Source: a virus
Lineage: Duplodnaviria > Heunggongvirae > Uroviricota > Caudoviricetes
IMG/VR virus record: IMGVR_UViG_2703718848_000008
Reading direction: 5' to 3' (one strand)
DNA: 4,498 nucleotides
The position numbers were made by a program, and so were the translations under genes. The notes under the pieces were generated by a model, which ran no database searches, was not told the origin of the DNA, and saw nothing but the letters and a program-made list of their open reading frames with translations. This document shows positions 1,348-4,498 of the stretch, piece by piece. How positions within the stretch are numbered: the first letter of the stretch is position 1; each line of letters begins with the position of its first letter.

Positions 1348-1623
1348 ATGAACAAAGAAAATGTCATTACCCTGGAAAATCCGGTCAAACGTGGTGAGCA
1401 GGTCATCGAACAGATCACGCTGATGAAACCCAGTGCCGGGACGCTGCGCGGTGTCAGTCTGGCTGCGGTCGCGAACTCCGAAGTCGATGCACTGATTAAG
1501 GTGCTGCCGCGCATGACTGCACCGATGCTGACCGAGCAGGAAGTCGCCGCACTGGAACTGCCTGACCTTGTGGCGCTGGCCGGTAAGGTGGTCGGTTTTT
1601 TGTCGCCGAACTCGGTGCAGTGA
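1348..1623 (+). CDS. E: Tail assembly chaperone gpE (zero-frame product), 91 aa
   Basis: ORF from ATG 1348 to TGA 1621-1623, preceded by a purine-rich SD-like GAAGTGAG. The translation (MNKENVITLENPVKRGEQVIEQITLMKPSAGTLRG…) matches recalled P2 gpE. It lies directly upstream of the tape measure gene, the usual chaperone position. Confidence 0.88.
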   Translation: MNKENVITLENPVKRGEQVIEQITLMKPSAGTLRGVSLAAVANSEVDALIKVLPRMTAPMLTEQEVAALELPDLVALAGKVVGFLSPNSVQ

Positions 1624-1775
1624 CGTTTCCGAAAAATCTGTCGGTCGATGACCTGATGGCGGATGTGGCAGTGATATTTCACTGGCCGCCATCAGAACTG
1701 TATCCCATGAGCCTGACCGAACTCATCACATGGCGCGAAAAGGCGCTCCGGCGAAGCGGAAACACGAATGAGTAA
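1348..1775 (+). CDS. E+E': Tail assembly chaperone frameshift fusion gpE+E' (-1 slip at 1596-1602; predicted about 142 aa)
   Basis: By hand translation, the -1 frame after the slip reads VAELGAVTFPKNLSVDDLMADVAVIFHWPPSELYPMSLTELITWREKALRRSGNTNE and stops at TAA 1773-1775. The E' frame has no start codon with an SD of its own, so it depends on the slip. This is analogous to lambda G/GT. Confidence 0.78.
1596..1602 (+). promoter_or_regulatory. Slippery heptamer T_TTT_TTG for programmed -1 ribosomal frameshift (E to E')
   Basis: It fits the X_XXY_YYZ pattern in the E frame (TTT = Phe84, TTG = Leu85), 7 codons before the E stop. The -1 frame is open from here to TAA 1773-1775. This matches the frameshift site I recall as experimentally described for the P2 FETUD operon. 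Confidence 0.8.
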
Positions 1776-4145
1776 CAATGTAAAATTACAGGTATTGCTC
1801 AGGGCTGTTGACCAGGCATCCCGCCCGTTTAAATCCATCCGCACAGCGAGCAAATCGCTGTCGGGGGATATCCGGGAAACACAAAAATCACTGCGCGAGC
1901 TGAACGGTCAGGCATCCCGTATTGAGGGATTCCGCAAGACCAGTGCACAGCTCGCCGTGACTGGTCATGCACTTGAAAAGGCTCGGCAGGAGGCCGAAGC
2001 CCTTGCCACACAGTTTAAAAATACCGAACGTCCGACACGTGCTCAGGCGAAAGTGCTGGAATCCGCAAAGCGTGCGGCGGAGGACTTACAGGCGAAATAT
2101 AACCGCCTGACGGACTCCGTTAAACGCCAGCAGCGGGAACTGGCCGCTGTGGGAATTAATACCCGCAATCTTGCACATGATGAGCAGGGACTGAAAAACC
2201 GTATCAGTGAAACCACCGCACAGCTTAACCGTCAGCGTGACGCACTGGCGCGTGTCAGTGCACAACAGGCAAAACTTAACGCAGTCAAACAGCGTTATCA
2301 GGCAGGCAAGGAACTGGCCGGAAATATGGCCTCAGTGGGCGCTGCCGGTGTGGGGATTGCGGCGGCGGGAACGATGGCCGGAGTTAAGTTGCTGATGCCC
2401 GGTTATGAGTTTGCGCAGAAAAACTCAGAATTGCAGGCTGTGCTCGGTGTGGCAAAAGACTCCGCCGAAATGGCCGCGCTACGCAAGCAGGCGCGCCAGC
2501 TCGGCGACAATACCGCAGCCTCGGCAGATGATGCAGCCGGTGCGCAGATTATTATTGCGAAAGCCGGTGGGGATGTTGATGCCATTCAGGCGGCAACGCC
2601 GGTCACGCTGAATATGGCGCAGGCGAACCGTCGCACGATGGAAGAAAACGCCGCCCTGCTGATGGGGATGAAATCCGCCTTTCAGCTTTCAAACGATAAG
2701 GTCGCTCATATCGGGGATGTTCTCTCCATGACGATGAACAAAACCGCCGCCGATTTTGATGGCATGAGCGATGCGCTGACCTATGCCGCACCTGTGGCAA
2801 AAAATGCCGGTGTCAGCATTGAAGAAACCGCCGCAATGGTCGGGGCACTGCATGATGCAAAAATTACCGGTTCAATGGCGGGGACGGGAAGCCGTGCCGT
2901 GTTAAGCCGCCTGCAGGCACCGACGGGAAAAGCATGGGATGCACTGAAAGAGCTTGGCGTGAAAACCTCAGACAGTAAAGGGAATACCCGACCAGTATTT
3001 ACCATTCTGAAAGAAATGCAGGCCAGTTTTGAGAAAAACCGGCTCGGTACTGCCCAGCAGGCTGAATACATGAAAACTATTTTCGGGGAGGAGGCCAGCT
3101 CAGCCGCCGCCGTGCTGATGACTGCCGCCTCAACCGGAAAGCTGGACAAACTGACCGCTGCGTTTAAAGCCTCAGACGGGAAGACCGCCGAGCTGGTAAA
3201 TATCATGCAGGACAACCTCGGCGGTGACTTTAAGGAGTTTCAGTCCGCTTATGAGGCGGTGGGGACTGACCTGTTTGACCAGCAGGAAGGCGCGCTGCGT
3301 AAGCTCACGCAGACGGCCACAAAGTATGTGTTAAAACTCGACGGCTGGATACAGAAAAACAAATCACTGGCGTCAACCATCGGCCTCATTGTCGGTGGCG
3401 CACTGGCGCTTACTGGCATCATCGGTGCCATTGGTCTTGTAGCCTGGCCGGTTATCACCGGCATTAATGCCATCATCGCGGCAGCAGGCGCAATGGGGGC
3501 AATTTTCACGACGGTTGGCAGTGCTGTTATGACCGCCATCGGGGAGATTAGCTGGCCGGTTGTGGCTGTGGTGGCCGCTATTGTCGCCGGGGCGTTACTT
3601 ATCCGTAAATACTGGGAGCCTGTCAGCGCATTCTTTGGCGGTGTGGTTGAAGGGCTGAAAGCGGCATTTGCGCCGGTGGGGGAGCTGTTCACGCCACTTA
3701 AGCCGGTGTTTGACTGGCTGGGTGAAAAGTTACAGGCCGCGTGGCAGTGGTTTAAAAACCTGATTGCCCCGGTCAAAGCCACCCAGGACACCCTGAACCG
3801 TTGCCGTGACACGGGCGTCATGTTCGGGCAGGCACTGGCTGACGCGCTGNNNNNNNNNNNNNNNNNNNNNNNNNNNNNNNNNNNNNNNNNNNNNNNNNNN
3901 NNNNNNNNNNNNNNNNNNNNNNNNNNNNNNNNNNNNNNNNNNNNNNNNNNNNNNNNNNNNNNNNNNNNNNNNNNNNNNNNNNNNNNNNNNNNNNNNNNNN
4001 NNNNNNNNNNNNNNNNNNNNNNNNNNNNNNNNNGGGCGGTACTGCGCCGGGGACACAGCTCGACCGCCAGTTACAGGATGCGCTCGAAAAATACGAGCGG
4101 GATAAACGTGCGCGCGCCCGTGCCAGCATGATGCATGACGGTTAA
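1768..4145 (+). CDS. T: Tail tape measure protein (P2 gpT family); interrupted by N run 3850-4033, with a reading-frame offset across the gap
   Basis: ATG at 1768 overlaps the E' stop (ATGAGTAA). The protein has an N-terminal Q/A/R/K/E-rich segment that looks coiled-coil, and a long Gly/Ala/Ile/Val-rich hydrophobic block (about nt 3367-3603), both typical of tape measure proteins. After the N run, the biologically sensible C-terminus (…GGTAPGTQLDRQLQDALEKYERDKRARARASMMHDG, stop TAA 4143-4145) is in a frame offset by one from the upstream part. The ORF-track end at 4131 is an out-of-frame artefact. Confidence 0.85.
3850..4033. other. Masked or unknown bases (184 N) inside the tape measure gene
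   Basis: Direct observation of a run of N. The length is not frame-compatible with the flanking coding sequence. Confidence 0.99.
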
Positions 4146-4159: not shown

Positions 4160-4498
4160 ATGATGCTCGCGTTAGGTATGTTTGTTTTTATGCGCCAGAC
4201 GCTGCCACACCAGACCATGCAGCGTGAATCAGATTATCGCTGGCCGTCAAATTCCCGTATCGGTAAACGGGATGCCTTTCAGTTTCTCGGTGTGGGTGAG
4301 GAAAACATCACGCTTGCCGGCGTGCTTTATCCCGAACTGACCGGCGGGAAGCTGACGATGACCACGCTCAGACTGATGGCAGAGAAAGGCCGGGCGTGGC
4401 CGTTGCTGGATGGCACCGGCATGATTTACGGCATGTATGTCATCAGCAGGGTGAGTGAAACAGGGAGTATTTTCTTTGCAGACGGCACACCCCGGAAA
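4160..4498 (+). CDS. U: Tail protein gpU (P2 GpU family), N-terminal 113 codons; continues past the window end
   Basis: ATG-ATG start at 4160 with a strong SD, open to the window end. The translation (MMLALGMFVFMRQTLPHQTMQRESDYRWPSNSRIGKRDAFQFLGVGEENITLAGVLYPELTGGKLTMTTLRLMAEKGRAWPLLDGTGMIYGMYVISRVSETGSIFFADGTPRK) matches recalled P2 gpU. It follows T as in the FETUD operon. It is absent from the ORF track only because it has no in-window stop. Confidence 0.85.
   Translation, partial: MMLALGMFVFMRQTLPHQTMQRESDYRWPSNSRIGKRDAFQFLGVGEENITLAGVLYPELTGGKLTMTTLRLMAEKGRAWPLLDGTGMIYGMYVISRVSETGSIFFADGTPRK

Follow-up and report, generated by a model that had tools for sequence, protein, structure and literature searches.

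The gpE/gpE+E′ frameshift site in the tail operon of a P2-like phage and a candidate SD-like element upstream of it

The stretch of DNA analysed (the window, 4498 bases in full) carries on its + strand the tail operon gene order of phage P2, namely sheath, tube, E, E′, tape measure and U, as recovered from Pfam matches. It begins with the 3′ part of the tail sheath gene (2-760; PF04984, Phage_sheath_1, and PF17482, 1C), a homologue of P2 FI that aligns with it and is broken by a run of N, followed by the FII homologue encoding the tail tube protein of 172 aa (773-1291; PF04985, Phage_tube, E = 1e-59). Gene E, homologous to P2 gpE and encoding the short tail assembly chaperone of 91 aa in the zero frame (1348-1623; PF10109, Phage_TAC_7, 2.6e-12; PHROG 103, 2e-44), precedes the tape measure gene, the P2 T homologue (1768-4145; PF10145, PhageMin_Tail; alignment to P2 T), and the 5′ part of the U homologue (4160-4498; PF06995, Phage_P2_GpU; alignment to P2 U). 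The E/E′ site therefore has the tube gene on one side and the tape measure gene on the other, within an operon for a contractile tail. Two runs of N interrupt the window, at 332-396 (65 bases) and 3850-4033 (184 bases). Alignment of the flanks to P2 leads one to expect 92 and 257 bases at these places, so the masked runs keep neither length nor frame. The second run prevents read-through of T, whose end is out of frame in the list of open reading frames and whose true stop codon is at 4143-4145. In addition, the intergenic space between FII and E contains a perfect 10+10 palindrome (CCGGTCAGCC a GGCTGACCGG, 1300-1320). The corresponding hairpin is kept in P2 with one G-U pair, a ‘partial terminator tI’ is annotated at the equivalent place in phage 186, and the palindrome may attenuate transcription into E-T-U-D.

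Close to its end, gene E contains the heptamer TTTTTTG (1596-1602), the first T of which is the third base of a GGT codon, so that it reads T_TTT_TTG in the X_XXY_YYZ phase of the E frame. Six sense codons follow the TTG before the E stop codon TGA at 1621-1623, which is the seventh codon, as the earlier note on this DNA had stated. The −1 frame is open from 1587 and, counted from G1602, runs through 57 sense codons to 1772 and ends with TAA at 1773-1775. Both frames are open over the 37 nt from 1587 to 1623, a zone that includes the heptamer and equals the overlap published for P2, where the E′ frame “extends 37 nt back into E” (PMC3931495). The tape measure gene starts with ATG at 1768 and overlaps the −1 frame by 8 nt (ATGAGTAA), so both the 57 open codons and the end 8 nt inside the tape measure gene, claimed earlier, hold to the base. 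Joining the 85 aa read from E to the 57 aa of the −1 frame gives an E+E′ product of 142 aa, join(1348..1602,1602..1775), exactly the size that had been estimated. On the + strand of the whole 4.5-kb window only 11 heptamers of the type XXXYYYZ occur in any phase, and one alone is found at the end of E. The −1 frame product (E′, 1602-1775) matches the profiles PF06528 (Phage_P2_GpE, 2e-22) and PHROG 1756 (1e-28); a search of NCBIfam with E, E′ and the fusion returned no match. The profile matches, the lone heptamer at the end of E and its conservation in relatives together argue that this arrangement is no chance open reading frame.

The region 1300-1800 of the window is matched at 95-99% identity by 74 phage records, P2 being among them at 97.4%. 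The P2 GenBank record (AF063097) presents E+E′ as a joined two-piece CDS and places a misc_feature, ‘site of -1 translational frameshift’, at the base homologous to the heptamer found here. Between the heptamer and the start of T a single base differs from P2 (1640, G for C) and this change is synonymous in the −1 frame; the E′ protein is identical to that of P2, which together with the PF06528 match answers the comparison with tail-chaperone models proposed in the earlier note. The predicted fusion shares 140 of 142 residues with P2 gpE+E′, the two differences being D10E and V23I. P2 was described to shift at TTTTTTG, yielding E of 91 aa and E+E′ of 142 aa (PMC3091744; PMC3931495), and according to the papers citing Christie et al. 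2002 (J Bacteriol 184:6522) frameshifting produces the P2 fusion and tail assembly requires E′. Homology, the P2 annotation and the literature thus agree that the feature is the event known from P2, present here in one of its close relatives, as already recognised from the letters alone, where it was assigned to the conserved E/E+E′ chaperone frameshift upstream of the tape measure gene and called known biology. The feature is already annotated in the closest reference genome and biologically it is nothing new. Its value is one of annotation, since ordinary gene callers overlook E+E′ or give a stray ORF of 39-51 aa, and the window should carry the join for the essential long chaperone. Many deposited P2-family genomes show E′ as a free-standing ‘GpE family’ ORF of 39-45 aa, or lack it, instead of presenting a joined CDS.

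Conservation was followed in 80 relative loci taken from bacterial assemblies, with one genome per species. Every one of these species-level loci has an in-phase T_TTT_TT[G/A] heptamer, and most of them share the six sense codons between heptamer and E stop, an E′ of 57 or 58 codons and the ATGAGTAA overlap. A broken E′ frame behind an existing heptamer was observed in just one of the 80, from a Symbiopectobacterium endosymbiont (L140). Among 16 distant P2-family phages sampled, T6G is kept in 11 (186, ENT90, Burkholderia phiE52237, KL3, AP3, Ralstonia, Pseudomonas Sirocco, Klebsiella ST512phi13.6, SEN4, Fels-2 and Aeromonas LPM4), and the remaining five have another slippery heptamer in the same place (TTTTTTC in two, TTTTTTT, CCCTTTC and GGGAAAG). 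Overall, an in-phase heptamer leading into an E′-like ORF was found in 250 of the 257 loci analysed. Four loci (L092, L098, L101 and L167) with enterobacterial-type P2-like tail genes, 70-92% identical to the window, come from assemblies labelled Chryseobacterium sp. 18061, Vagococcus sp. WN89Y and Sporobacter termitidis MAG, where such genes probably represent contamination or mis-binning. Furthermore, the motif C[C/A]GAA at +4 to +8 past the heptamer (1606-1610 in the window; loci L169-L262) is kept in very distant P2, Pseudomonas, Burkholderia and Fels-2 types. It encodes Glu, the third E′ residue, and the constraint could act on protein or on RNA.

The anatomy, homology and conservation observed here, joined to the shift itself as described in the P2 literature, give us very high confidence, on both counts jointly, that the window is the FI-FII-E-E′-T-U tail operon of a P2-like (Peduovirus) phage or prophage and that a programmed −1 ribosomal frameshift gives rise to gpE and gpE+E′. 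The sequence holds no counter-evidence to the E/E+E′ frameshift. Most ribosomes starting at the E start codon (1348) would stop at 1621-1623 and release the 91-aa gpE, and a minority would move back by one base at U_UUU_UUG (1596-1602) as tRNA-Phe in the P site and tRNA-Leu in the A site re-pair on UUU_UUU. For the shifted ribosomes GUC at 1602 would be the next codon, the first of 57 read before the TAA at 1773-1775, and the product would be the 142-aa gpE+E′. On the model of lambda G/GT, the N-terminal part shared by both chaperones would bind the tape-measure protein and E′, as a rare extension, would bring in the tube protein, so that the frameshift would fix the ratio of the two chaperones.

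The exact slippage route bears on one residue of the product. Simultaneous slippage of both tRNAs predicts the junction ...VVGFL-VAELGAV..., which had been proposed as the peptide to look for; this holds under that model, whereas residue 85 (Leu or Phe) is model-dependent and public annotations differ on it. If only the P-site tRNA-Phe slipped on U_UUU while the A site awaits the infrequent decoder of UUG, residue 85 would be Phe. In terms of peptides, VVGFLVAELGAVTFPK / GFLVAELGAVTFPK (GFL-VAELG) would denote tandem slippage and VVGFFVAELGAVTFPK / GFFVAELGAVTFPK (GFF-VAELG) P-site slippage or transcript editing. Proteins sourced from NCBI give the GFF-V junction (P0001) and the depositors of P2 and Wphi give GFL-V (P0003). 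No junction sequence was found in the literature searched. Slippage in the P site alone is a serious but improbable variant, given that the tetramer U_UUG stays at background in reporters (0.119%, PMC4066793) and that heptamers are generally viewed as sites of tandem slippage after zero-frame decoding of the A-site codon (PMC4066793). Moreover, position 7 is kept as G/A in the relatives, suggesting that the A-site codon matters.

The homopolymer at the shift site also brings to mind transcriptional slippage, in which RNA polymerase would add one U to U6 and the edited mRNA would be translated to ...GFF-VAELG.... The weakness of the heptamer as a ribosomal shifter in reporters would fit such a source of the long product, as would the T7 or T4 found in place of T6 in public assemblies, which marks the run as length-unstable at least during sequencing or replication. 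Nevertheless, efficient slippage by bacterial RNA polymerase generally requires runs of about 9 or more A/T, and a run of six is short by comparison. The X_XXY_YYZ phase is strictly conserved together with G/A at position 7, features that are relevant to tRNA re-pairing and irrelevant to the polymerase, and related phages carry the non-homopolymeric CCCTTTC and GGGAAAG at the same place. With a run of only six and with phase and seventh base conserved, transcriptional slippage is very unlikely to be the main route. In the assemblies with an altered run (Logan L002-L008; proteins P0005-P0022), a T4 run (GGTTTTGTC, giving the junction GF-VAELG) or a T7 run (giving GFF-VAELG) replaces T6 and puts E and E′ into a single in-frame ORF. 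One T4 form was seen on 11 contigs, all from one SRR2338xxxx series, and its sheath, tube and tape-measure neighbours are intact. Sequencing errors in the homopolymer may account for these forms, or they may be genuine indel mutants, which would produce the long chaperone only.

That E′ is instead a separate small gene with its own start (GTG 1620 or ATG 1656) is scarcely credible, although a 51-aa GTG ORF (1620-1775) stands in the ORF-finder list and many phage records carry a free-standing 39-aa ‘P2 GpE family’ ORF from the Met of DDLMAD: GTG 1620 is found in only one of 46 dereplicated relatives, being unique to the window, neither candidate start is preceded by an SD, the PHROG 1756 alignment begins at residue 1 of the −1 product, and P2 E′ was reported to lack a ribosome binding site (PMC3931495). 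Furthermore, 33 of the 46 dereplicated relatives have no ATG, GTG or TTG in the −1 frame between the heptamer or E stop and the conserved DDLMAD Met, and yet the stretch from the E stop to this Met varies with −1-frame codon periodicity (entropy 0.70/0.46/1.27 at positions 1/2/3), so independent initiation is not viable as a general explanation.

No conserved 3′ structure at the canonical spacing of 5-9 nt was found in the window fold, in the consensus of 46 relatives or in 59 dereplicated lineages, which upholds the earlier statement that no convincing hairpin or pseudoknot is visible downstream of the slip site and agrees with the published statement that P2 lacks such a structure (PMC3091744). 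Folding of 1603-1700, run as had been suggested for the RNA 3′ of the slip site, gave z = −3.07 and nothing that we accept as a stimulator. The minimum free energy fold contains a small 5-bp hairpin CGCCG-AACU-CGGUG (1604-1617, + strand) 1 nt after the heptamer, with 76% of cells paired in relatives and almost no covariation; it is too near the shift site to be a canonical 3′ stimulator and is probably incidental. A 10-bp stem CUGAUGGCGG/CCGCCAUCAG with an inner hairpin lies 50 nt past the shift site (1653-1695, + strand). It is 93% paired in relatives with weak covariation, sits on the near-invariant LMAD...WPPSE codons and does not emerge as a significant consensus structure. The consensus fold of the 46 relatives is weak (−9.7 kcal/mol, covariation term −0.65), and in the 59 lineages the first 50 nt past the heptamer mostly give z between −1 and +1 relative to shuffles. 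With marginal covariation and no excess folding in most lineages, both helices were rejected as established stimulators, and they are retained mainly because they lie on conserved codons.

A long-range helix proposed by RNAalifold (1586-1595/1645-1654) was rejected as well, since by per-pair counts R at column 26 and Y at column 84 do not co-vary, and so was an upstream hairpin with U run from the terminator scan (1575-1596), the count of which is no better than in shuffles. Rfam showed no family near the shift site. Two of the distant phages, Fels-2 (L179, 655-680) and Klebsiella ST512-KPC3phi13.6 (L177, 670-695), have a 6-bp hairpin GUCGGU...ACCGAC or GUCGGC...GCCGAC placed 8-9 nt after the heptamer. 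The spacing is canonical for a stimulator, and one compensatory change of U-A to C-G distinguishes the two phages.

How a heptamer working at about 0.1% in reporters reaches several percent natively with no visible 3′ structure is a question for recoding specialists. The 2002 abstract of Christie et al. is said to put the P2 shift at about 10%. In systematic E. coli reporters the shift on U_UUU_UUG amounted to 0.118% when no stimulator was present and rose to 0.247% when the IS911 signals, and to 0.765% when the IS3 pseudoknot, were supplied (PMC4066793, Table S3), whereas the efficiency in P2 and its relatives is put at 2-3 times that of lambda, where G:GT is 30:1 (Atkins review, PMC5009743). 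A heptamer this weak in reporters, set against the higher efficiency reported for P2, implies that something in the native context must raise the efficiency.

The only candidate found is a possible 5′ modulator immediately upstream. The SD-like sequence AGGTGGTC (1586-1593, + strand; AGGUGRUY in relatives) is complementary, with one G-U pair included, to 5′-GAUCACCU-3′ near the 3′ end of 16S rRNA. Of all anti-SD matches in E plus 160 nt it ranks first in 68 of 81 loci, and its start is always 11 nt before the heptamer. Among the 59 dereplicated relatives, the third base of codon −4 is G in 58 although the residue varies between K, Q and E, and codon −3 is GTG in 53. At codon −4 the ratio of AAG to AAA is 48:1, while AAA is preferred at three other conserved Lys columns of E. 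As a negative control we used GAGGTGGTCA inside the tube gene FII (1082-1091), which has equal anti-SD complementarity (−15.8 kcal/mol); this control site (GAGGTGGTC, 1082) varies freely in relatives at synonymous sites (GAA 18, GAG 15). Judged from these alignments, the element at 1586-1593 appears to be under nucleotide-level selection at synonymous sites.

The same GGTG is found in the same register in 186, Fels-2, ST512phi13.6, SEN4, Aeromonas LPM4 and Ralstonia phages, the E proteins of which are only 40-70% identical to that of the window. In Pseudomonas Sirocco it is displaced by one codon, and Burkholderia phages have GGGGGG 12 nt upstream in its place. The five distant phages with more slippery heptamers lack the element. 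It is also absent from about 16 Pseudomonas-type T6G lineages, in which the best duplex is about −5 kcal/mol, and for this reason we rejected the notion that it is a universal partner of T6G.

The distance to the heptamer is short, as AGGUG ends 5 nt and the extended AGGUGGUC 2 nt before it. In 1994 Larsen et al. reportedly found an SD to be inhibitory at 3 nt before the dnaX site. The range over which an SD stimulates −1 shifting is 9-14 nt upstream (PMC5009743). When set in register with the full anti-SD complement UAAGGAGGUGAUC, however, we infer that the spacing would be only about 2 nt shorter than in dnaX. We tentatively propose, as a possibility well short of an even chance, that during elongation AGGUGRUY base-pairs to the 3′ tail of the ribosome's 16S rRNA and so promotes, or at least tunes, the −1 slip at the weak U_UUU_UUG; on this view the element is under synonymous-site selection in phages of the P2, 186, Fels-2, Aeromonas and Ralstonia types, at a spacing shorter than in dnaX. 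No description of a 5′ element at the P2 E/E′ site was found in the literature searched. If the proposal is true, it would explain how the weak heptamer reaches several percent and offer a modest lead on how weak heptamers are boosted.

Among known systems, the E. coli dnaX site (A_AAA_AAG) resembles the window in having, upstream of a −1 heptamer and within the coding region, an SD-like sequence conserved at synonymous sites. It differs in that the 3′ edge of the dnaX SD is 10 nt from the heptamer and a 3′ hairpin follows, whereas in the window the edge lies at 2-5 nt, outside the range of 9-14 nt, and no stem-loop is placed 5-9 nt downstream. The lambda G/GT pair (G_GGA_AAG) follows the same logic in the same position, with two ORFs that overlap and are flanked by the major tail protein and tape measure genes and a low-level −1 shift that sets a fixed ratio of short to long chaperone, as for the P2-type E/E+E′ (PMC5009743). 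The heptamer is different, the tail is contractile on the P2 side, and E and E′ of the window show no sequence homology to lambda gpG/gpGT, Pfam returning PF10109 and PF06528 alone. Hence the resemblance to lambda is one of organisation and mechanism and not of sequence.

Much closer are the E/E′ pairs of phage 186 (Orf51/Orf52), Fels-2, Burkholderia KL3 and KS5 and other Peduoviridae, which encode homologous proteins, carry T6G near the end of E and, as in the window, let E′ stop at or over the tape-measure start. These pairs share 40-70% protein identity with the window and differ in the distance from heptamer to E stop (6-22 codons), in the use of TTTTTTC, TTTTTTT, CCCTTTC or GGGAAAG in place of T6G in some lineages, and in the hairpin 8-9 nt downstream of the heptamer that is present in Fels-2-type phages and lacking in the P2 type. 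The closest system is P2 gpE/gpE+E′ itself, with the same operon order, the same heptamer base, products of 91 and 142 aa, the 8-nt overlap with T and an identical E′ protein; the window departs from it by the two conservative replacements in E and by a small number of synonymous changes, and functionally nothing distinguishes the two.
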